The notes under the pieces were generated by a model. The model saw only the letters and a program-made list of their open reading frames with translations, searched no databases and was not told the origin of the DNA. A stretch of 64,000 nt of DNA from Nitrospirota bacterium (GTDB lineage Bacteria > Nitrospirota > Thermodesulfovibrionia > Thermodesulfovibrionales > Dissulfurispiraceae). Shown here piece after piece: positions 3,171-34,522 of this stretch. Each line of letters starts with the position of its first letter. Position 1 is the first letter of the stretch. The DNA lies in NCBI GenBank assembly GCA_040758355.1, contig JBFLWF010000001.1, positions 32,001 to 96,000 of the forward strand, written 5' to 3'. A program made the position numbers and the translations under genes.

Positions 3171-4013
3171 TCAATGTTTGGCGTGAGGGATCTTCTTTGC
3201 GATTTTTTCATGGGAGATTCCCACGATCGAAATCCCTGACTCTTCCGCTTCTTTAATCAGCCGTTCCCTGTTCACGATCATGCTCCTCTGCGCTTCAACT
3301 GCAATGACCCTGGCCCTTACTTCAACCATGGACTTAAGGGTGTCGAGCCCTATAACAGGAACATCAAGCCTCATGTCCTGGTGCGGTTTGGAGACCTTAA
3401 TCACTACAGCCCCTTCTCCCGAGAGTTTTCCTCCCCTGAGTATTGCCTCATCAGTTCCCTCTATTGCCTCCACTGCCATCACAGCCTGTCCTTTCACAAC
3501 AACAGTCTGACCGATATCCAGCCTGCCTATTTCCTTTGCTATCCTCCAGCCGAACTCTATGTCCTTCCATTCGTCCATTGCTGGAGGGTCGTCTGTCAGC
3601 ACACCCTCAGGCGTGAGGAGGTGAGGGCTGAAGGTCGGAGTGTCTATTACATGGATGCCCTCTTTTTCGAGCTCCTTTGTTATTGCATTGAGTATGGAAT
3701 CGTCGCTTTTGTCCTTGAGGGAAAAGAGCAGTTTCACTGCCCTCAGGTCAGGTGTGAGCTTCGATTTGTAGAGAAGGGTTTTTGAGACCTTCCCTGCCAT
3801 AATTGCCTCTTTTACATCAAATTCCTTCAGGGTGTCTATCAATTCGCCCAATTTCCCCACATTAATCCATTTTATTTCATCGGATACCCTGTTGAGGTCA
3901 GGTGAAGCAAGATTTTCGAGGGCTATGGTAATGACCTTAAAACCGCGCTCCCTCGCATCCCTGGCTATTATCTTAGGGAGATCTCCTGTTCCAGCAATAA
4001 TGCCTATCTGCAT
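3171..4013 (-). CDS. lpxI: UDP-2,3-diacylglucosamine hydrolase LpxI (DUF1009)
   Basis: IGIIAGTGDLP, LDIGQTVVV, AVEAIEGTD and QDMRLDVPVIG motifs; follows lpxA. Confidence 0.9.
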   Translation of the reverse strand: MQIGIIAGTGDLPKIIARDARERGFKVITIALENLASPDLNRVSDEIKWINVGKLGELIDTLKEFDVKEAIMAGKVSKTLLYKSKLTPDLRAVKLLFSLKDKSDDSILNAITKELEKEGIHVIDTPTFSPHLLTPEGVLTDDPPAMDEWKDIEFGWRIAKEIGRLDIGQTVVVKGQAVMAVEAIEGTDEAILRGGKLSGEGAVVIKVSKPHQDMRLDVPVIGLDTLKSMVEVRARVIAVEAQRSMIVNRERLIKEAEESGISIVGISHEKIAKKIPHAKH

Positions 4014-12818: not shown

Positions 12819-13484
12819 ATGTTTACCGGATTGATAATAGAACTTGGCGAAGTGGTCTCTCTTGAGAAAAAGACAGAGAGCGCCAGACTGTCCATAAAGG
12901 CTTCCGAGGTTGTAAAGGATGCAGCCCTCGGAGACAGCATTGCCATAAACGGTGTATGCCTTACTGTGGTGAATATGGAAAAGGATATCCTCTCCTTCGA
13001 TGTTTCATATGAAACCCTGAAGAGCACAAATCTCGGAAATCTTAAAAGGGCCGATAGAGTTAATCTTGAGCCTTCCCTCAGGCCGAATTCGAAATTAGGC
13101 GGGCACTTTGTTACAGGCCATGTGGAAGATATAGGAAAAATAAGAAGCAAAGCTCCATTGGGTAATGCTTTAAGGATCGAGATAGAAACGCCGGATAATG
13201 TATTGAGATATCTTGTTGAGAAAGGCTCTGTTGCAGTTGACGGCATAAGCCTGACAGTCGTGGATGTATTAAAGGATGCATTCAGTGTCGTGATAATTCC
13301 ACATACCGCAAAGATGACAACAATTGGATTTAAAAATGTGGGAGATACTGTCAATCTCGAGCCGGATATCCTCGGGAAATATGTGGCAAAGTTTTTAGCC
13401 GGCAGTCAGCAATCAGCAGTCAGCAGTCAGGATAAAGACAAAGAGCTTTTGTCAGCACTCAAACAATCTGGTTTTATATCCTGA
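12819..13484 (+). CDS. ribE: Riboflavin synthase (alpha chain)
   Basis: MFTGLI start, SIAINGVCLT, GGHFVTGHV, VDGISLT. Confidence 0.95.
   Translation: MFTGLIIELGEVVSLEKKTESARLSIKASEVVKDAALGDSIAINGVCLTVVNMEKDILSFDVSYETLKSTNLGNLKRADRVNLEPSLRPNSKLGGHFVTGHVEDIGKIRSKAPLGNALRIEIETPDNVLRYLVEKGSVAVDGISLTVVDVLKDAFSVVIIPHTAKMTTIGFKNVGDTVNLEPDILGKYVAKFLAGSQQSAVSSQDKDKELLSALKQSGFIS
13402..13429. repeat. 7-nt unit GCAGTCA x4, in-frame in the ribE C-terminus
   Basis: gcagtca gcaatca gcagtca gcagtca, encoding GSQQSAVSSQ. Confidence 0.85.
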
Positions 13485-14241
13485 TTATATCTCCATCTTT
13501 CAGCAACCGCAGGTTTTTTATCTTAAGCCTTTCCAACTCTTTCTTAATGGCCCTGAAGTGCTGTGGTTTTGGATGCGTAATGCATATCTGTTCCGGCATC
13601 TGTTTTATCTTCATTAACTCCTCTTTTAATAACTGTGGCGTAAGATGTCCTGTCATTATTGACATATCCCTCATCGCATTAGGGAAGGATGCCTCGATTA
13701 TCAGGCAATGAATCTTTTTGTCTCCTATCTTTTTCCATGTGGAATCGGTAGGGCCTGTGTCGCCTGTATAAAAAAAGCGTTTATTCTTTGCATCCTCTAC
13801 CAAGTATCCAACTGCCGGGACAGAATGAGTGACCCTGTATGCTGTAATCTTATAATCATTTATTCTCATTGACTTGCCTGATTTTAGCTCCCTGTATCTC
13901 AGCACGGCATTCTCATAATCCGGTATCATCGTAAAATCGGGCCAGAGGGAATCGTTCAGGAGGTTTTTCTTTATGGTCTTTATCACAGACGGGATACTGA
14001 TAATGTTTACTCGCTGTCTCCTTTTTGCAACGATTATATTGTCCGCAAGGAATGAGATGCCCCTTATGTGGTCGAGGTGTGCATGGGTAATGAATATATC
14101 CTTTATCTTTGCCTGGGCATTTTTGTCAAGGACATTTGTAAGGCTGCCTGCATCGAATAATATTTCATTGTCAAGCAGAAAGCCCGGAGGATTATGACCT
14201 GGAAATTCTGCGCCGGAACATCCAAGGACTTTTATCCTCAT
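13474..14241 (-). CDS. MBL-fold 3',5'-cyclic nucleotide phosphodiesterase (class II-like)
   Basis: VLGCSG, DAGS, THAHLDH, LNDSLWPDF, YTGDTG, GHLTP. Confidence 0.8.
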   Translation of the reverse strand: MRIKVLGCSGAEFPGHNPPGFLLDNEILFDAGSLTNVLDKNAQAKIKDIFITHAHLDHIRGISFLADNIIVAKRRQRVNIISIPSVIKTIKKNLLNDSLWPDFTMIPDYENAVLRYRELKSGKSMRINDYKITAYRVTHSVPAVGYLVEDAKNKRFFYTGDTGPTDSTWKKIGDKKIHCLIIEASFPNAMRDMSIMTGHLTPQLLKEELMKIKQMPEQICITHPKPQHFRAIKKELERLKIKNLRLLKDGDIIRI

Positions 14242-15332: not shown

Positions 15333-15422
15333 AATGGTTAAATTTTAGCATAAATTTTTATAGAATTGACTAATTTTTCCTCTCTAACAAACAAAGACAT
15401 AAAATGCTCATGCTGAGACCAC

Positions 15423-15464
15423 TGCAATTCTTTAATTGCAAAACCGGGTCAAAAAAACTATAAT
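15423..15464 (+). promoter_or_regulatory. Sigma70-type promoter with an overlapping inverted repeat; probably leaderless transcript
   Basis: TTGCAA (15436-41), 17 nt, TATAAT (15459-64), ATG 6 nt later with no RBS; TGCAATT-cttt-AATTGCA at 15423-15440 overlaps the -35 box. Confidence 0.6.
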
Positions 15465-15470
15465 TTCTCC

Positions 15471-15911
15471 ATGTGGCGTGAAAAGGATATTATAAGGGCA
15501 TATCAAAAAGGAGATGCCATTATTAAGGAAGGCGAAACAGGGAGAGAGATGTTCATTATCAAGTCGGGGTCTGTGGATGTGCTTAAGGGAGAGGAAGACA
15601 ATCAGATTCACCTTGCTACATTAGAGCGCGGAGATTTCTTCGGTGAAATGGCTATACTTGAAAATGAGCCACGATCTGCTACGGTTATAGCCAGAGAGGA
15701 GACGCATCTTCTTGTCCTGAACACAGGAAATTTTATGTTAAAAATAAGAAAAGACCCGACATTCGCCTTCAATATAATGCAAAAGATGAGCAGCAGAATC
15801 AGGCTTCTCAACGAAAAGCTACTGGGTCAGAAAGGCATCTCCACTGCAAACCATTCTGGAATAAACAAAGAGATTGCGGAAACAGAGTATTTAAAGGACG
15901 CAGGTCTTTAA
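15471..15911 (+). CDS. Stand-alone cyclic nucleotide-binding domain protein
   Basis: IIKEGETG.EMFIIKSG.V; phosphate-binding cassette GDFFGEMAILENEPRSATV; no HTH evident. Confidence 0.85.
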   Translation: MWREKDIIRAYQKGDAIIKEGETGREMFIIKSGSVDVLKGEEDNQIHLATLERGDFFGEMAILENEPRSATVIAREETHLLVLNTGNFMLKIRKDPTFAFNIMQKMSSRIRLLNEKLLGQKGISTANHSGINKEIAETEYLKDAGL

Positions 15912-15941
15912 ATTTAAAGGGAGGTTTTTGCCGGAAAGATA

Positions 15942-16697
15942 ATGAGCCGATTCAATACATTATTGAGGGAAGACCATTTATATATCATATCCGACCTTCA
16001 TTTAGGCAATCCCTCTTTTGTCCAGGGAAAGGGTTTTATTTCTTTCTTAAGGCATCTTTCAGAACAGAACATAGCGCTTTGCATCAATGGAGATGGTCTT
16101 GACCTTCTGCAGATGTCTTTCGCGAAATTGATGCTGGACTTTCCATTGATATTAAAGAATATCCAAAACTTCATGGCAAACGGCAAAAACAAGATATATT
16201 ATGTAGTCGGAAACCACGACATATATCTTGAAGCGTTTTTAGAGGATTCGCGTTTTTTTAACGTGGTTCCGTTTCTTGATGTTGTCTCCGGCAATAAGCG
16301 GATTCACATAGAACACGGACACCTTTATGACAGTTTTTTTTTGTATCATCCAGGCCTTTACACCCAGCTTACCAAATTTGCAGGCATGTGGTTAAAGCTC
16401 GCACCCGGGTTTTTCCATTTCTGGGATAAAATCACGCAGCATCTGGCATCGATAAAAAAAGGAAATACAAATGCCTTTCCGGTGGAGCGTGCCGGCATTG
16501 TATCTGCAGCCGCTGAAATCATGGAGAGGGGGGTCGATACGGTTATTTTTGGCCATACGCATCGTCCGGGCATATATGATCTGAAGGAAAACAGGAAATA
16601 TGCCAATACCGGGAGCTGGATTGGTGCGGCAGGTTATTACATTGAAATCAAAATGGGCGAAGTGAGTTTGAAGGAATGGAACGGTCTGGGCACGTGA
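15942..16697 (+). CDS. Calcineurin-like metallophosphoesterase (LpxH-like subfamily)
   Basis: SDLHLG, NGDGLD, GNHD, EHGH, FGHTH, NTGSW. Confidence 0.8.
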   Translation: MSRFNTLLREDHLYIISDLHLGNPSFVQGKGFISFLRHLSEQNIALCINGDGLDLLQMSFAKLMLDFPLILKNIQNFMANGKNKIYYVVGNHDIYLEAFLEDSRFFNVVPFLDVVSGNKRIHIEHGHLYDSFFLYHPGLYTQLTKFAGMWLKLAPGFFHFWDKITQHLASIKKGNTNAFPVERAGIVSAAAEIMERGVDTVIFGHTHRPGIYDLKENRKYANTGSWIGAAGYYIEIKMGEVSLKEWNGLGT

Positions 16698-18073
16698 GGC
16701 GTCACAAAAATCTTTTTATTGTTTTAATTTTTTTAATCCTGTTATTTATCCCTGCAACCTGTGCGTATGCGCAGGAGACAGTTACTGCAGAAGCCGATAA
16801 AGGCAGCAGTGACAACGGTCTTAGAGAGTTTTTTGAGAAGAATGTTACCGCTTCTCTTGAATATAAATTTTTCGGACATTTCCGTAAAGTAAAACAGGAT
16901 AATGCCCAATATGTCCATGAAATACTAATGAAGTTTGATGCAAAGTATGATTTTGATAAAAACACGAGTATCAGTTTAACGCCGATTATCCGGACAGACA
17001 CCAGACACTTTACCGCAGGGGTCATAGACAGATTACAGGAGACGGGGGAGCGCAAGTATCATTTTAATTTTAAGGAGGGATTCTTAGTAACACGCAGCAA
17101 AAATTTAGACCTTTATATAGGCAAGAAGATTTACTCATGGGGTAAGGCAGAGGGTTTTAACCCTACAGACAATATAAATCCATATGATTTTTTGGACTTT
17201 CCTGACAGGGAGAAGATAGGCGTCCTGTCAGCGGCTGTTGAATATTCCATGGGTAATTACTCCGTTGATATTGTATTTATCCCGTTTTTTACGCCCAGCC
17301 GTCTTCCAGGCCAGAGTAACAGATGGTCAGGCAATATAGAGGGTGAAACAACTAATTTTGACAATGTTATTATACCGTCCGATCTTAGCGGAGAAGTGCA
17401 CGAAAGAGACCTCCCTGCTAAAACTCTTGGCAACAGCCAGTTTGCAGGCCGTATAAAAACTACAATCAGCGGCTGGGACATGGCTTTGAGTTATTACAGA
17501 GGGTTTGACAGCGTGCCTGTTGTTGAAGAGGAAACTATCGGTTCAGCGAGACACTATACACCAAAGTATAACAGGATAAGTAATTACGGTTTGGCGATAG
17601 CTACCACTTTTGATAAGCTGGAAGTGCATGCAGAGGGAGCTTACAGGGATACAGCTAAAGGGTACGATGACGATTTTTTAGCCTATATAATAGGGGGGAG
17701 CTATAGCTGGGATGATTTGGGACTCGAATTTATAGAGAAGATAAGTCTTTATTTCGAATTTGCAGGTGAAAGGATTACAAATGCAAAGGACAGCAGGAAA
17801 AGATTCAGCTCTACGGATTACAGCCGCCCTTTAAAGAGGTCTGTCCTCGGAAGCCTGGTATTTAAGTTCAATGAGGATGTTGACCTCAGGATAGGTGGAA
17901 ACTATAACATCGACGAGTACGACCATTACATACAGCCTAAACTTACTTACAAGGTTTCGGATAAATTAAAGGTGAAGATAGGGTTGGATATTATGACCGG
18001 TCACAAAAATACATTCTGGGGCAAATGGAGGAACAACGACCGTGTCTTTACAAATGTCTTATGGTATTTCTAA
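16694..18073 (+). CDS. Putative outer-membrane beta-barrel protein (DUF1302-like)
   Basis: Signal peptide (AYA-QE), IGKKIYSWGKAEGFNPTD, amphipathic strands, C-terminal WYF; GTG start overlaps the upstream TGA (ORF track start 16676). Confidence 0.7.
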   Translation: MRRHKNLFIVLIFLILLFIPATCAYAQETVTAEADKGSSDNGLREFFEKNVTASLEYKFFGHFRKVKQDNAQYVHEILMKFDAKYDFDKNTSISLTPIIRTDTRHFTAGVIDRLQETGERKYHFNFKEGFLVTRSKNLDLYIGKKIYSWGKAEGFNPTDNINPYDFLDFPDREKIGVLSAAVEYSMGNYSVDIVFIPFFTPSRLPGQSNRWSGNIEGETTNFDNVIIPSDLSGEVHERDLPAKTLGNSQFAGRIKTTISGWDMALSYYRGFDSVPVVEEETIGSARHYTPKYNRISNYGLAIATTFDKLEVHAEGAYRDTAKGYDDDFLAYIIGGSYSWDDLGLEFIEKISLYFEFAGERITNAKDSRKRFSSTDYSRPLKRSVLGSLVFKFNEDVDLRIGGNYNIDEYDHYIQPKLTYKVSDKLKVKIGLDIMTGHKNTFWGKWRNNDRVFTNVLWYF

Positions 18074-18124
18074 TTAAGTCAATATCGTATATAATTGACT
18101 AATTTTAAGGAATAGGGGGTATTT

Positions 18125-18949
18125 ATGAGAAAGGAAGTATCATTAAAGGGGATAACAGAAATCTTTGTGCTCGTCTTTTTCCTGAGCTTTTCTTTTGCTT
18201 CTTTTACGGGCGTCCCTTATGCTGCGGCTGAAATGTCAGGGAAAGAGATAATGGAGAAACAGAAGAAACTTCAGCAGACAAATGATGAAAAGGAAATCCT
18301 CGCAATGAAGCTCGTTGATAAAAAAGGAAATGTTAAGGACAGAAAAATAGTCAGATATTCCATGAAGGCAGGCTCTGGACTTAACAAGATAATGATGGTC
18401 TTTCTGGAGCCAAAGGATGTTAAAGGGACAGGGCTTCTTACATGGGAGCAGAAAGACGGTGACGACGACCAGTGGTTATACCTGCCCGAGCTGGGGAAGG
18501 AGAAGCGCATCGCCTCTGGCGGGAAAAAGAATAAGTTCATGGGTACGGATTTCGCATTCGAAGACCTGAGGCCAGAGAATTTAACCGCGCACCAGTACAA
18601 TTCAATCGGGAGCGAGCAGATAGAAGGCAAAGACTGTTTTGTGATCGAGGCGCTGCCTGCAGGGAAGGAAGAAAAAGAAAGCGGTTACAGCAAAAGAAAA
18701 CTCTGGATAAGAAAGGACATCTTTTTTACCGTGAAAATAGAATATTATGACAAAAAAGGAAAACTCATAAAGGTTCAGGAAAATAAGAATGCAAAGAATG
18801 TTGCCGGCACTGTCTGGAGAAGCGATGAGATAGTTATGAAGGATTTGGGGGAAGAACACCAGACCTCTCTTATTGTCCAGAGCAGGAATGTAAATAAGGG
18901 GCTGGATGAGGACTTTTTCAGCCTTAGAAAACTGAAATCACCCGAGTAA
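18125..18949 (+). CDS. LolA-like outer-membrane lipoprotein-sorting family protein
   Basis: FLEPKDVKGTGLL, DDQWLYLP, RIAS, FMGTDFAFEDL, YSKRKLW. Confidence 0.85.
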   Translation: MRKEVSLKGITEIFVLVFFLSFSFASFTGVPYAAAEMSGKEIMEKQKKLQQTNDEKEILAMKLVDKKGNVKDRKIVRYSMKAGSGLNKIMMVFLEPKDVKGTGLLTWEQKDGDDDQWLYLPELGKEKRIASGGKKNKFMGTDFAFEDLRPENLTAHQYNSIGSEQIEGKDCFVIEALPAGKEEKESGYSKRKLWIRKDIFFTVKIEYYDKKGKLIKVQENKNAKNVAGTVWRSDEIVMKDLGEEHQTSLIVQSRNVNKGLDEDFFSLRKLKSPE

Positions 18950-18970
18950 TTTAAGGGTCAGGGGTAAGTT

Positions 18971-21694
18971 ATGACAAAATTCATGCAATGGATAGTAAAG
19001 AATCCTGCCATATCTGCCATCTTCCTTGTTGTTGTGCTTGTTGTTTTATCCATAAAAATCACAACCCTCGAGATTGATTCATCGGCAGAAGGACTTATGG
19101 CAGAGGGAGACCCTGAGAGGGAATATTATGAAAAGATCAAGGAAAAGTTCGGCAGCGATACCCTCACGGCAATTGTAATACAGAACAGCAGCGGCGATGT
19201 TTTTACAAAGGAAACCATCGCCTTAATAGATGCGCTCACCGAGAAGGCCAAAGAGATAGAAGGTGTTACAAAAGTCCAGAGCCTGACAACTGTCAATAAG
19301 ATTAAGGGAGAAGGAGATTTCCTTAATACGGATAAGCTGATTGAGCAGGTTCCTTCCAGCCCAGACGAATTGAGGCAGGTAAGGGAAGACGCCCTCAGGA
19401 ACGATGTCTTTATCAGCAACATCATATCGAAGGAAGGGAAGATTACAGGCATCAATATTTTTACAGAGAACCGCCTGAATGACAAAAAATTCAACGAGAA
19501 GTTTTCGAAGGAAATAGACAGGCTTATCGCCGAGAACAAGGGGAATCATAAGGTCTATCAGATAGGCAATCCAGTTGCAAAGGTGGCCTTCAGCTCATCT
19601 ATACAGAAGGATCAAAGGACGCTTATTCCATGGTCTGTTGCATTCCTTATCCTTCTTCTCCTCCTGTCGTTAAGGAGTTATTCGGCAGCATTTCTTCCGC
19701 TCCTGACAGGCGGGTTGAGCATATTTGCAACATTGGGGTTTATGACACTTATGGGCTACCAGATAAATGTAATTACCGCCATTGTTCCAGCCCTGTTGAT
19801 TGCTATAGGCTGCACCGAAGACATACATATGATAACCGAATATTTTGAAGGACTGGGGTCTGGGAAGAATAAAAAAGAGGCCATCATGTATATGGCGACC
19901 AAATGCGCACTCCCCATTACCCTCACCACTGCTACAACCGTTTTCGGCTTTTCGTCGCTGGCATTCAATAAGATTACGATACTCAAGCAGTTCGGTATTG
20001 TTGCTACATTCGGTCTTTCCATTAACTTTCTTATTACTATTATCGTAATACCGAGCTTCCTGCAGTTTATGAATGTCCCCGGAATATTCCAGAAGAAAAA
20101 ACGCAATCCCCTAAAAAGGCATATAGACAGCTTTATAGACTGGTTTATTAAACTGCCGACTCAGCATAAGACCTTGATTACCGTGGGGACTTTATTTTGC
20201 ATTGGTTTGGCTCTGGCCGGCTGTTTACGGCTGAAGGTAAATACGGACTTTATAAGTTATTTCAAGGAAGGCTCTTACATAAGGCAGCGTGTTGCCAGCA
20301 TCCATAAAGATCTGTCCGGCGCGCTGAATTTCAATATCATAGTGGAGGCCGGAGAGGAAGACAAGATTAAAGACCCGGCTGTACTCGGGCAGATTGCAGG
20401 GCTCCAGCAATATATGGACGGGTTGAAGGTGATGGATAAAAGTATTTCCATAGCGGACTATATAAAGGTGATGAACAGGGAAATGCACGGCGGTGAAAAG
20501 GAGATGCAGAAAATCCCCGACTCAAAGAACCTTGTTGCCCAATACCTCCTTTTAATGAGCGATGATGATATAAAAAGCTATGTTGACTCAAACTATTCTA
20601 CTGCTAATATAGCGGTCAGGCATAATATTACAAGTTCGGCAGAACTTACTGCCGTACTGGATAAGATTAAGGAATATGTCAATAAAAACTTCTCAAAGGA
20701 CATCGCGGTAAGGTTTACCGGTGAGGGGGTTTTGATTAACAACGCGGCAGATTATATGGCTTCAGGACAGGTAACCAGCCTCGGCTCCTCCCTCCTTACC
20801 ATATTTGCCGTTATGGCCATTTTATTCATGTCTTTTAAGGCAGGCATTATCTCTATGATCCCCAATATCATCCCGATAATCCTGAACTTCGGCATTATGG
20901 GCTGGTTTGGCGTTCCGCTGAACACAGGCACATGCATGATAGCTGCCATTGCATTGGGCATTGCAGTAGATGATACTACCCACTTCATGGCAAGGTATTA
21001 CAAGGAATTAAAGAACACCAATGATCAACAACTGGCTGTAGTTAACTCTCTTAAGGGCGAGGGGGAACCTGTTTTATTGAGCTCTGTTGCACTTGCAGTC
21101 GGGTTTGCTATTTTGGGCCTGTCCGAGTTTAATCCGACAATACATTTTGGACTGCTTTCTGCACTCGTAATGCTTATCGGGTTTGCATCCGAGATGCTTG
21201 TTACCCCTATCCTGTTGGGGGCAGTGCAGTTGATAACACTCTGGGACTTCTTGCTCTTAAAACTGAAGAGGGATATTACCAAAGAGAGTCCCCTATTTAT
21301 GAACCTCAGCCGTTCAGAGGCAAAAAAGGTTGTCCTCCTCGGCAGTATCCGCTCAGCTTCTCAGAATGAATACATTATTCGTCAGGGAGAAATAGGCGAG
21401 GAGATGTATATGATAATAACAGGGAAGGTTAAGGTAACTGTGGACAGCGAAGGCAAAAGCAAAGAACTTGGCATCCTGAAGGACGGGGATATTGTAGGTG
21501 AGATGGCGCTGGTGGGAGGCGGCACAAGGTCTGCCAATGTTATCGCATTGGAGGATACGGAGCTTTTAAAAATCGATGACAGGTCTCTTGACAGGGTCAG
21601 ACGCAGATTCCCGCGGATTGCAGCAAAGCTTTTCTTAAATATTTCGAGGATATTGAGCAGTCGCTTGAAAACTCAAAATTACGCCAATTTTTAA
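18971..21694 (+). CDS. MMPL/RND family transporter fused to a C-terminal cNMP-binding domain
   Basis: Two TM/periplasmic repeats with GIAVDDTTH; C-terminal IIRQGEIGEEMYMIITG.V and GDIVGEMALVGGGTRSANV. Confidence 0.85.
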   Translation: MTKFMQWIVKNPAISAIFLVVVLVVLSIKITTLEIDSSAEGLMAEGDPEREYYEKIKEKFGSDTLTAIVIQNSSGDVFTKETIALIDALTEKAKEIEGVTKVQSLTTVNKIKGEGDFLNTDKLIEQVPSSPDELRQVREDALRNDVFISNIISKEGKITGINIFTENRLNDKKFNEKFSKEIDRLIAENKGNHKVYQIGNPVAKVAFSSSIQKDQRTLIPWSVAFLILLLLLSLRSYSAAFLPLLTGGLSIFATLGFMTLMGYQINVITAIVPALLIAIGCTEDIHMITEYFEGLGSGKNKKEAIMYMATKCALPITLTTATTVFGFSSLAFNKITILKQFGIVATFGLSINFLITIIVIPSFLQFMNVPGIFQKKKRNPLKRHIDSFIDWFIKLPTQHKTLITVGTLFCIGLALAGCLRLKVNTDFISYFKEGSYIRQRVASIHKDLSGALNFNIIVEAGEEDKIKDPAVLGQIAGLQQYMDGLKVMDKSISIADYIKVMNREMHGGEKEMQKIPDSKNLVAQYLLLMSDDDIKSYVDSNYSTANIAVRHNITSSAELTAVLDKIKEYVNKNFSKDIAVRFTGEGVLINNAADYMASGQVTSLGSSLLTIFAVMAILFMSFKAGIISMIPNIIPIILNFGIMGWFGVPLNTGTCMIAAIALGIAVDDTTHFMARYYKELKNTNDQQLAVVNSLKGEGEPVLLSSVALAVGFAILGLSEFNPTIHFGLLSALVMLIGFASEMLVTPILLGAVQLITLWDFLLLKLKRDITKESPLFMNLSRSEAKKVVLLGSIRSASQNEYIIRQGEIGEEMYMIITGKVKVTVDSEGKSKELGILKDGDIVGEMALVGGGTRSANVIALEDTELLKIDDRSLDRVRRRFPRIAAKLFLNISRILSSRLKTQNYANF

Positions 21695-21764
21695 TTTTTG
21701 TTGTATTTTAGAATAAATTGTGATAAAGCTTTAATAAGCTATACTGCCGTCGTGGGGGGATATT

Positions 21765-26992: not shown

Positions 26993-28963
26993 CTATTTTT
27001 CCTTCATTGTAACGACCTTTTCTTCTTCCACCTCTTTAACTCTCGATTCAGCCCCCTGCTCAAGACCCTTAACCTCATAGATCGCAACAGGCTGTTCTTT
27101 CCCTTTAACAACCACCTTTTCGAGCCCTGTTACTTCGGTACGCCATAGTTTTCCTGTTGTGATTAACTCCTTTATCTTATTCATAGTAAATTCCGTCATC
27201 AGGATATGCACATTATACTTCCTTGTAAGCCCTTCTACCCTTGAGCCTAAATTCACATGGTCTCCAATGACGGTATAGTCCATCTTCTTGCCTTCTGCGC
27301 CGATATTGCCTACAAGCACCTCGCCTGTGTTTATTCCAATCCCGCAATCAAGAACAGGCTTGCCTTCGGCCTGCCATTTCTGCTGAAGTTCTTCGAGTCT
27401 TTTAACCATATTCAATGCACATTTGATGGCAAGCTCAGCATGGTTTTCCTGTTTCATTGGAGCGCCCCAGAATGCGAGAATTGCATCGCCGATGAATTTA
27501 TCCAGAGTTCCTTCCCATTTGAAGACTATATCTGTCATTTCGCCGAGATATTCATTCAGTATGGAAACAACCTCTTCAGGTGAATGCTTTTCGGATAAGG
27601 ATGTAAATCCCCTTACATCGGAGAAGAGAACTGTTATCTCTCTTCTTTCGCCGCCCAGTTTAGCCATACTTGGATTTTTGATCAGTTCATTGACTATTTT
27701 TTCTGTTACATAGCTCGAGAACATTGCCCTGATTTTTCTTGCACGCTTTTCCTCTACGGCATAGTTGTAAGCTGTAACGCTTATGAATATAAACAGTATG
27801 TTAATCGAAGGATATGCGATATTTATCCAGAGACCGTTTTTAGCAAACAGATAGTAGCCAGACAAAAGCACGAGCAGGAGAAAAATGCCTGCGATGGCTG
27901 AAGCGCCTGCTGCCTTAAACCTCGGTATCAGGATGGAAAGCAGGCATCCGGATAACAAAAGGACAATCAGGTTTGTCGATAGAGAAACACATCTGATAAT
28001 CCTGTTCTCCAGAATAGACGATATGACGTTTGCATGTTTTTCGACTCCGGGCATTGCAGGAGAAAAAGGAGTAACCCTTAAATCGTAAATACCCACAGCA
28101 GTTGCACCAATAAGCACTATTTTGCCCTGCAGGTCATCGGGCCTTACACTTCCCTCAAGGACATCTGAGATGGAGATGTGCCTGAATGTCTGGTTAGTGC
28201 CGTAATAATGGATGAGCGACCTCCCCCATCTGTCAGTTGGAATAAATCTCTTGCCAAGTTGTATGCCCTCCGTTGCCTTTATAACAACCTTTTCATGAGG
28301 AATACCTAAATAAAAGGCTGCTGCCTGAAGCGTGATCGATGGATAGAGATAGTCTTTATATCCGATTATCAGAGACTCCCACCTTAGTGTGCCGTCGCTG
28401 TCCGGGAACATATTGATATGTCCAAGCCCCATCACATTCTGTATGATCTCAGGCACAGGGATAAGAACCCTTTTCGACATGATTGGATTGTATTTATAAA
28501 ACATCTCATGGTTTGCAATGGATGTAAATGCAGAGCTTAAAAGGAAGTCGCTTTCAGGCAGGTCTGAATCCTTTTCAAAGTCAAAGACAACAGGCAGTAT
28601 CACATTGCCTGCATCATTAATAGCCCTGCCAAGCAATGGGTCATTCTTCTCTTTTTCACTAAGTATTATGTCAAAGACAATTATCTCCGCACCTGCGTCA
28701 TTTAACTTATTAACGAGTTCTGCAATCTTGTCCCTGTCCCACGGCCACCTGCCGAGCTTTTCTATGCTCTTCTCATCTATTGCTGCAATTAATACAGTGT
28801 CGGGAGGTTTAATTGTCCCCCTGACTTTAAATCTGTAATCGAGGAGCTTTTCTTCGAGTGTTTCGAGAGGGGATAGTTTGAGAAGCATTAATACTATCGT
28901 AAATGTCGTAATGGAAAGTCCGATGAGAATTCCTAACTTGCCCTTTCTTACTATTTCCAGCAA
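26993..28963 (-). CDS. CHASE2-domain class III adenylate cyclase
   Basis: AIDEKSIEKLGRWPWDR, PDSDG, MPGVEKHAN, 3 TM; FSDVRGFT, LDKFIGD (Lys) and DYTVIGDHVNLGSR (Asp) are ATP-specifying residues. Confidence 0.92.
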   Translation of the reverse strand: MLEIVRKGKLGILIGLSITTFTIVLMLLKLSPLETLEEKLLDYRFKVRGTIKPPDTVLIAAIDEKSIEKLGRWPWDRDKIAELVNKLNDAGAEIIVFDIILSEKEKNDPLLGRAINDAGNVILPVVFDFEKDSDLPESDFLLSSAFTSIANHEMFYKYNPIMSKRVLIPVPEIIQNVMGLGHINMFPDSDGTLRWESLIIGYKDYLYPSITLQAAAFYLGIPHEKVVIKATEGIQLGKRFIPTDRWGRSLIHYYGTNQTFRHISISDVLEGSVRPDDLQGKIVLIGATAVGIYDLRVTPFSPAMPGVEKHANVISSILENRIIRCVSLSTNLIVLLLSGCLLSILIPRFKAAGASAIAGIFLLLVLLSGYYLFAKNGLWINIAYPSINILFIFISVTAYNYAVEEKRARKIRAMFSSYVTEKIVNELIKNPSMAKLGGERREITVLFSDVRGFTSLSEKHSPEEVVSILNEYLGEMTDIVFKWEGTLDKFIGDAILAFWGAPMKQENHAELAIKCALNMVKRLEELQQKWQAEGKPVLDCGIGINTGEVLVGNIGAEGKKMDYTVIGDHVNLGSRVEGLTRKYNVHILMTEFTMNKIKELITTGKLWRTEVTGLEKVVVKGKEQPVAIYEVKGLEQGAESRVKEVEEEKVVTMKEK

Positions 28964-33214: not shown

Positions 33215-33224
33215 CAATAGTCGT

Positions 33225-33301
33225 TGGCGCGCCTGAGAGGATTCGAACCTCCGACCCTCGGCTCCGGAGGCCGATGCTCTAATCCACTGAGCTACAGGCG
33301 C
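33225..33301 (-). tRNA. tRNA-Arg(CCG)
   Basis: GCGCCTGTAGCTCAG...TCGGC-CTCCGGA-GCCGA...GGTTCGAATCC...CCA. Confidence 0.95.
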
Positions 33302-33306
33302 AAATT

Positions 33307-33390
33307 CGTTATCCGTAATGCGTTATCGGTAATGGGTAAAAGGCTTTTAACTATATAATGAAAACTCATTACGCTTTACTCATCACGATT
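33307..33390. repeat. Inverted pair of 7-nt period arrays in the tRNA-His / tRNA-Arg spacer
   Basis: cgttatc cgtaatg cgttatc ggtaatg ggtaaaa ... aactcat tacgctt tactcat cacgatt. Confidence 0.75.
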
Positions 33391-33392
33391 TT

Positions 33393-33468
33393 TGGGGTGG
33401 GCGACGGGGATTGAACCCGCAACCACTGGAGCCACAGTCCAGTGCTCTGCCATTGAGCTACGCCCACC
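33393..33468 (-). tRNA. tRNA-His(GTG)
   Basis: GGTGGGCGTAGCTCAA...CTGGA-CTGTGGC-TCCAG...CCA, with G-1. Confidence 0.95.
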
Positions 33469-33477
33469 GTTCGTATA

Positions 33478-33554
<77 letters not shown>

Positions 33555-33555
33555 A

Positions 33556-33633
<78 letters not shown>

Positions 33634-33754
33634 TAAACATTTAGAATACTAAAATGCCTTGATAAAAGTCAATTTTGAGCGCAACTACTATACCCGGATA
33701 GGTTTTTATAGCTGTTAAATGTTAAAATAAGCAAATAATTTTTGGAGGAATCAG

Positions 33755-34522
33755 ATGTTAAGCATGAAACATGTGGAGCCGGTGAGGCTTTCGCTGGATA
33801 CAAAATTCAAGTTCAGGTGCCATAAAGACATAGGCTGCTTTACAAAGTGCTGCAGCAATATCAATATAATGTTAACCCCATATGATATCGTGAGGCTAAA
33901 AAACAGACTGGGCATATCATCAGGCGAATTTTTGGCTAACCATACCTATGTAGAGATAGACGAGAAAACATCCCATCCCTTTGTATTTCTGAAAATGAGT
34001 GAAGATGCAGAAAGGAAGTGCCCCTTTGTAACGTCTGAGGGGTGCAACATATACACAGACAGACCTGCAAACTGCAGATACTATCCTGTTGGACAGGCTT
34101 CCTTGAAGAAGATGGATGATAAGATAAATGAACCAATCACCGAGGAGTTCTATTTCCTTATAAAGGAGCCCCACTGCCTCGGCTTCAACGAAGATTCGGA
34201 ATGGACGATAAAAAGCTGGAGGGACGATCAGGGAGTTGACGTCTATGACGATATGAACAGGGGATGGAAAGATATCCTGTTCAGGAGAAATCTCCCCGGC
34301 CATTCGTTGGATGAAAAGAAACAAAAGGCATTTTATATGGCCTGCTACGATGTCGACAGATTCAGGAGATTTGTGTTCGAGAGCAAGTTCCTTGAGATGT
34401 TTGATATAGATGAAAAGACCTTAGAAAGAATAAAAAATGACGAGACCGAATTGATGAAATTCGGGTTTGAATACACGAAGTATATACTGATGATGGAAGA
34501 GACGCTGAAAACAAAGAAGTAA
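33755..34522 (+). CDS. YkgJ family cysteine-cluster (putative Zn/Fe-S) protein
   Basis: CHKDIGCFTKCC, CPFV...GCNIYTDRPANCRYYP. Confidence 0.85.
   Translation: MLSMKHVEPVRLSLDTKFKFRCHKDIGCFTKCCSNINIMLTPYDIVRLKNRLGISSGEFLANHTYVEIDEKTSHPFVFLKMSEDAERKCPFVTSEGCNIYTDRPANCRYYPVGQASLKKMDDKINEPITEEFYFLIKEPHCLGFNEDSEWTIKSWRDDQGVDVYDDMNRGWKDILFRRNLPGHSLDEKKQKAFYMACYDVDRFRRFVFESKFLEMFDIDEKTLERIKNDETELMKFGFEYTKYILMMEETLKTKK

Follow-up and report, generated by a model that had tools for sequence, protein, structure and literature searches.

A family of RND/MMPL transporters with a fused cyclic-nucleotide-binding domain, and a recurrent sensor/phosphoesterase pair, in a five-gene block of a Nitrospirota bacterium

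Can a cyclic nucleotide act directly on an RND pump? RND pumps are known to be under the control of transcription and of small membrane proteins, and the question is raised by a block of five genes in the window, by which we mean the whole analysed stretch of 64,000 nucleotides (nt) from a Nitrospirota bacterium (GenBank assembly GCA_040758355.1, contig JBFLWF010000001.1, positions 32,001 to 96,000). The last gene of the block encodes an RND/MMPL-type transporter ending in a domain for the binding of cyclic nucleoside monophosphates (cNMP). We find that this fusion is real and represents a widespread family, and that the block is composed of two modules: a HAE3-type trio of pump, carrier and predicted barrel, and a pair consisting of a stand-alone cNMP-binding protein and a phosphoesterase. 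In window coordinates, with lengths in amino acids (aa), the genes are:

15471..15911, plus strand: stand-alone cNMP-binding protein, 146 aa, no helix-turn-helix (HTH) domain (PF00027, 4e-24)
15942..16697, plus strand: cytoplasmic LpxH2-like calcineurin-type metallophosphoesterase, 251 aa, with GNHD motif and an insertion rich in aromatics (PF00149)
16676..18073, plus strand: predicted outer-membrane beta-barrel, DUF1302-like, 465 aa (ESM Atlas look-alike, signal-like segment)
18125..18949, plus strand: periplasmic LolA-like carrier, 274 aa (PF17131, 1e-57; DUF1329, 5e-12)
18971..21694, plus strand: HAE3-like RND/MMPL transporter with C-terminal cNMP-binding domain, 907 aa (Pfam MMPL, PF03176, and cNMP_binding)

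In the pump, Pfam recognises MMPL plus cNMP_binding, the latter at residues 794–877 (4e-23); the membrane part comprises residues 1–750 and the cNMP domain about residues 765–905. The cNMP cassettes of the block, read directly from its sequence, are GEMAILENEPRSA and GEMALVGGGTRSA. A preliminary description of this DNA had held that the pump ends in a cNMP domain with an intact cassette and that the first gene is a stand-alone domain of this kind, and Pfam together with the conserved binding residues bears this out. A homologue search with pump residues 480–907, in which 8000 candidates were scored, returned 789 matches at E<=1e-20. Both PF03176 and PF00027 are present in 120/120 of the homologues listed (the top 120 of the 789), which is partly expected because the query region contained the cNMP domain and, thus, selected for fusions. 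Among these 120, G843 and E844 are kept without exception and R853 is kept in 119. The Gly-Glu pair, R853 and R898 of the C-helix are retained in all 46 complete fused domains (47 fusions longer than 560 aa, minus one truncated by a contig end), down to 27% identity, in a set spanning Planctomycetota, Acidobacteriota, Thermodesulfobacteriota, Myxococcota, Proteobacteria, Verrucomicrobiota, Elusimicrobiota and others. The search for MMPL and cNMP_binding fusions that had been proposed beforehand, therefore, recovers a family extending across many phyla. Named close homologues (78% identity) point to Nitrospirota, and cultured organisms carrying the fusion include Thalassospira, Pacificispira and Solimonas. 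Reading the choice between cyclic AMP (cAMP) and cyclic GMP (cGMP) from the sequence was given up, as the residue after the Arg varies (Ser in 57, Thr in 47 and Ala in 11 of the 120). Some members show further variation: two fusions (L062:2575-5874 and L064:1218-4514) extend about 190 residues past the cNMP domain with no Pfam match at 1e-8, homologue P0098 lists a receiver domain and homologue P0056 an FHA domain. In genome G001, about 465 bases of the fused gene (L025:11165-11794, G001:C52) are missing in frame, corresponding to window positions of about 21036-21500; the gap, either a real deletion or an assembly error, removes helices 11–12 and half of the cNMP domain.

The topology pattern is, like gene content and conservation, a direct observation. 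Alignment-averaged hydropathy gives 12 transmembrane (TM) helices arranged as 1+5+1+5, with the last helix ending near residue 745–750; helix 1 is followed by a large, presumably periplasmic loop of 189 residues and helix 7 by one of 184. Since RND proteins usually have their N-terminus inside the cell, this pattern predicts a cytoplasmic cNMP domain. Ahead of this domain, about 10 residues past helix 12, lies a conserved short linker (W758-D759). The membrane acids E283, D284, D667 and D668 in helices 4 and 10 are invariant in 51 aligned pumps; acids in these helices constitute the proton relay of MmpL3 and HpnN. The best family match of the pump is the HAE3 model TIGR00921 (243.8 bits, below its curated cut-off of 351.9), and the HpnN model reaches 119 bits at a cut-off of 752. 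On the basis of helix 4 (residues 280–286), two subgroups of fusions can be told apart: one, including this pump, reads G-S/C-T-E-D-x-H and has a barrel gene, and the second has no acids there and mostly no detected barrel of this family.

Direct gating by a cyclic nucleotide appears to be the most economical reading of this arrangement. The 12-helix pump, driven by protons, would export a lipid of the membrane, first to the LolA-like carrier and then to the barrel. Nucleotide binding would order the C-helix with its invariant, CRP-like Arg898, and the change would be passed to helix 12 through the short conserved linker, which joins the two and would couple binding to transport. Binding, gating, direction and cargo are what we infer from the sequence; that the pump is switched when cAMP or cGMP binds to its fused domain, and that the trio moves lipid between the membranes, we give an even chance.

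C-terminal cytoplasmic cNMP-binding domains are already known from membrane transport proteins, namely from the channels SthK (PDB 4d7s) and MscS-CNB (PMC2246266) and from MFS-CNBD fusions, which are MFS carriers and not RND proteins (PMC10710835); the HAE3-type trio is likewise known. The modulators of RND pumps that we found in a 2023 review are small proteins such as AcrZ and WatS1, as opposed to second messengers. The preliminary description knew of no characterised RND/MMPL transporter with a fused cNMP domain, and in the literature searched, which covered few subscription papers, we found no description of an RND/MMPL::cNMP fusion or of the sensor/phosphoesterase pair. With an invariant cassette wired to the last helix in a widespread family, the idea that a second messenger controls an RND pump directly can be put to the test.

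Which partners does the pump work with? The carrier matches the solved structures 9tp6, 3bk5, 4z48 and 3buu. The third gene has no Pfam or NCBIfam match; it likely encodes an outer-membrane barrel, as predicted from its ESM Atlas look-alike (a DUF1302 cluster, 0.98), an N-terminal hydrophobic signal-like segment (residues 13–31) and a C-terminal end reading Trp-Tyr-Phe. In a contig scan for the pump, 80 loci were kept, 45 fused and 35 non-fused. A LolA-like gene is present in 29/45 fusion loci and a barrel in 18/45, many of these loci lying on short contigs; for non-fused loci, the counts are 19/35 and 12/35. In addition, a plain HAE3 paralogue in the same genome (L194:4926-12673, G000:C12) is adjoined by LolA-like and barrel genes, its barrel being 21% identical to that of the block. 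Given that non-fused pumps and the plain paralogue have the same partners, the trio represents a HAE3-type module of general occurrence, and the earlier view of MMPL, LolA-like and barrel genes as a trans-envelope unit is supported and conserved across phyla. Other neighbours of the plain paralogue, labelled by eye, are a YeeE-like membrane protein, a sulfide-oxidoreductase-like gene and a sigma54 two-component pair.

The lipid exporters HpnN, BstA and the MmpL proteins, to our knowledge, bear no cNMP domain. They have the same RND lipid-transporter fold with acids in helices 4 and 10 (PMC11713862; PDB 6wu0, 9syt); however, the pump lies far below the cut-offs of these families and its helix 4 reads G-x-T-E-D-x-H. 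The closest likeness to the trio is found in AmeABCD of Castellaniella defragrans (HAE3 RND AmeD, DUF1302 AmeA, LolA-superfamily AmeB and COG4447 AmeC; PMC6394551), with a HAE3-type 12-TM pump, a LolA-superfamily periplasmic protein and, as predicted for the block, a DUF1302-like outer-membrane protein. In contrast to that system, the block contains no AmeC-type gene (COG4447), a short PF17131 carrier, a pump bearing a cNMP domain and the extra cNMP/phosphoesterase pair. For the related AmeABD-type trio, transport of hydrophobic compounds has experimental support, AmeABCD conferring monoterpene tolerance (PMC6394551), and long alkanes induce an MMPL/LolA-like protein and a porin (TOL_3187/3188), close in make-up to the trio (PMC6304351). 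Both precedents favour an alternative in which the pump performs cNMP-tuned efflux or uptake of external hydrophobic compounds, with the pair as a co-regulated passenger that has no role in the cargo; no recurring hydrocarbon catabolism genes were seen among the annotated neighbours of the fusion, and we consider this alternative unlikely.

What, then, does the pair contribute? Proteins of the gene 1 family are small and carry a conserved K-I-R-R-D-P-T-F-A-F hinge motif, which occurs in 21/150 top cNMP representatives, all of 136–222 aa, and once in the own genome. In 44 aligned relatives, Arg68 is kept in all, and position 59 is Glu in 28 and Asp in 16. A role as CRP/FNR regulator was rejected: the 146-aa protein contains only PF00027, and the CRP model matched positions 25–136 of 214, with no HTH. 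The cNMP gene lies directly upstream of the phosphoesterase in 56/80 metagenome loci, some of which are near-copies; of the other 24, six have fewer than 300 bases upstream. In one clade (L109, L113-L117, L119, L125, L146), the place of the cNMP gene upstream of the phosphoesterase is taken by a gene for a protein of 244 aa that looks secreted, matches no Pfam family and is START/cyclase-like by eye. No fusion of the phosphoesterase to a cNMP or MMPL domain was found in 18 longer matches, which are weak evidence, or in the 150 cNMP representatives.

The phosphoesterase has a five-block motif with all seven metal ligands kept; D18, H20, D51, N91, H92, H125, H205 and H207 are invariant in 47 aligned sequences. 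It shares the metal ligands and, apparently, an insertion between motifs 4 and 5 with LpxH and LpxH2 (PMC5016852, PMC3087551), and 9/9 PDB sequences matched by its profile at E<=0.01 are LpxH. However, His92 stands where LpxH has the Arg after GN in motif 3, which is the published LpxH criterion (PMC3087551, PMC5016852), and PRK05340 yields 44 bits at a cut-off of 134. Also in contrast to LpxH, it has a near-constant cNMP partner gene, and its genome holds an LpxI-type gene (window 3171-4013, adjoining lpxA). A housekeeping LpxH was, thus, rejected, the phosphoesterase being found in 3/401 genomes; His for Arg, scores far below LpxH cut-offs and the LpxI-type gene argue against a lipid A enzyme. 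The designation "LpxH2-like" refers to a comparison of motifs with the published criteria. LpxH holds its lipid product in the insertion, and the LpxH2 substrate is described as unknown (PMC5016852). Because the profile matches only LpxH structures and an LpxH-like insertion is apparent, a lipid-linked substrate seems likelier. The pair is a separate module, repeatedly found with the pump, that likely hydrolyses a lipid-linked phosphate or pyrophosphate under cNMP control; it offers a handle on what LpxH2-type enzymes do and may represent a cAMP effector other than a transcription factor.

The same data bear on another function, that of a cyclic-nucleotide phosphodiesterase of the Rv0805/CpdA type, controlled by its small cNMP partner and setting the level that the pump reads. 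His instead of Arg after GN, as in Rv0805 (PMC5016852), fits this function, and the tight pairing with the cNMP protein needs no pump; on the other side stand the exclusive match to LpxH structures, the LpxH-like insertion rich in aromatic residues and the finding of a cyclase in 0/80 phosphoesterase loci, so that we regard it as quite unlikely.

How the two modules join is seen from their co-occurrence. Pair and pump are found together in the own genome (G000), in G001, G019 and G222, in L035, L041 and L050, and in eight metagenome loci; besides Nitrospirota, these include one locus from Omnitrophota, with no barrel seen before the contig ends, and two alphaproteobacterial ones. Transporter genes are found in eight of the 80 phosphoesterase loci; in L118, L129 and L168, the three that show the end of the pump, this end bears the cNMP domain. 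Loci with pair and pump are scattered over the phosphoesterase tree (5 changes), and 3/3 phosphoesterase genomes in the phylum sample also have the fusion. For efflux or uptake of external compounds, this cuts both ways: pair and pump are mostly apart and the block is patchy, and yet they join in several separate branches. Moreover, genome G230 has a different LpxH-like phosphoesterase (L205:14340-15854, 504 aa, with a hydrophobic C-terminal part) 1.7 kb upstream of the same trio, which also speaks against a mere passenger. In a Magnetovibrionaceae locus (L050:7031-15207), three genes carry FHA domains, namely those for the LolA-like protein and the pump and one further downstream, and a secretin gene adjoins.

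The direct gating of the pump may be extended to a two-point control, in which one cyclic nucleotide would switch the sensor/hydrolase pair that makes the cargo and would open the pump that ships it via carrier and barrel to the outer membrane. As a whole we consider this extension improbable, and its weakest step is that the phosphoesterase makes or trims the cargo of the pump. Tabulated neighbourhoods show that the trio partners recur, but five-gene synteny is not general, and the proposal that the phosphoesterase processes the cargo is weakly supported.

Several observations weigh against direct gating or its extension to the pair. The phosphoesterase is near 3/45 fusion loci versus 0/35 non-fused ones (p=0.25), no transporter gene is seen in 22 phosphoesterase loci that extend 1.5 kb or more to both sides, and 7/10 fusion genomes of the phylum sample have no phosphoesterase match. 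Ten non-fused pumps are placed inside the 57-row clade that holds 47/47 fusions in a FastTree of the membrane part (rows shorter than 560 aa and 10/14 plain paralogues left out), which argues that the domain is dispensable. The single clade itself is a point in favour: with 7 changes, it is consistent with a single gain of the cNMP domain and several losses, although the change count by itself does not separate gain from loss. A cyclase adjoins 4/45 fusion versus 1/35 non-fused loci, which is not significant (p=0.38). Finally, among the neighbours annotated (108 of 175 picked, plus a few module genes), most are unrelated housekeeping genes. Lipid genes do adjoin some fusion loci, which counts in favour of the lipid reading, although they were tallied for fusions only: a PUFA-synthase-like polyketide synthase (L044), an acyl carrier protein with a ketosynthase (L055), a FabH-type gene (L031), MlaC (L056) and an AMP-binding enzyme (L058).

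A link to cyclases is better backed by other loci than by the flanks in the window. In G230, a CHASE2 cyclase is encoded downstream of the pump at a distance of about 210 bases; L034 has an FHA cyclase directly after the barrel, and three Nevskiaceae loci (L060/L065/L066) have an AAA cyclase directly before the carrier; class III cyclases are encoded in 5/5 fusion genomes tested, with two in the own genome. The Lys and Asp that we take to be ATP-selecting are present in the window and G230 cyclases and absent from those of L034 and L065. Such differing specificity residues, together with repeated domain loss that leaves apparently intact pumps and a CRP-like C-helix suggestive of dimer formation, would suit a fused domain that binds nucleotide without gating and instead drives dimerisation, determines localisation or sends signals out of the pump as a transport-state sensor, or one that binds another ligand. 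However, the binding residues and the short linker after helix 12 are fully conserved, fitting the allosteric coupling that is established for cNMP-gated channels, and we judge a non-gating domain very unlikely.

Does the genomic context argue for direct gating? The preliminary description placed the operon between a cNMP phosphodiesterase and an adenylate cyclase. The class II phosphodiesterase is at 13474-14241, with a GAF-HD-GYP gene between it and the block, and three genes and 5.3 kb separate the block from the CHASE2 cyclase (26993-28963, minus strand). In G002, of the same genus, and in G019, the GAF-HD-GYP and TPR-barrel genes are about 120–130 bases apart with no block between, the flanks being 77–94% identical to the window; the match to G002 stops at 15382 and resumes at 21754, and that to G019 stops at 15377 and resumes at 21694. 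This gives:

15383..21693, no strand: inserted block, approximate limits (junction alignment versus G002 and G019)

With the site empty in these two genomes, the block is an insertion into an older cluster, and the claimed flanking position does not hold. G004 has the same empty arrangement with a more distant TPR-barrel gene; the block at this site is common to G000 and G001, and in G019 and G222 it lies elsewhere, at sites with no relation to this one. The interrupted four-gene cluster of CHASE2 cyclase, phosphodiesterase, FecR and TPR genes has already been described by itself (PMC9239204); it provides the site of the insertion and does not belong to the block. Conserved phosphodiesterase/cyclase flanks were, thus, rejected as evidence, and the local context is not evidence for gating, which counts against it. 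The fusion is patchy, being present in 10/401 genomes of the phylum and in 5/41 close relatives. Together with the empty site, this distribution is the signal of transfer; composition gives none, the block having a GC content of 0.41–0.44, like the genome, and a third-position value (GC3) of 0.44–0.52 versus 0.47 +/- 0.06. Short repeated segments at window 33224-33680, upstream of the open reading frame (ORF) at 33755, also occur in G002 and G019.

Five closely spaced, co-oriented genes, as initially reported, are confirmed by the ORF list, with intergenic gaps of 30, -22, 51 and 21 nt; the list holds no additional ORF within the block. Genes 1 and 2 are without a hydrophobic segment, and genes 3 and 4 each have one, at the N-terminus. 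A scan of the block found no terminator-like site at its 3' end. A single promoter, as had been proposed, is plausible, with the following candidate, but the scan total of 16 promoter-like matches is not above that of shuffled sequences (13.0 +/- 4.3):

15436..15464, plus strand: sigma70-like promoter candidate TTGCAA-N17-TATAAT (10/12 match, best of 16)

Its -10-like hexamer stops 6 nt upstream of the first ATG (window 15459-15473), and this spacing together with the lack of a Shine-Dalgarno sequence suggests a leaderless mRNA. A similar site is present in G001, and the candidate resembles the promoter at the empty site of G002.

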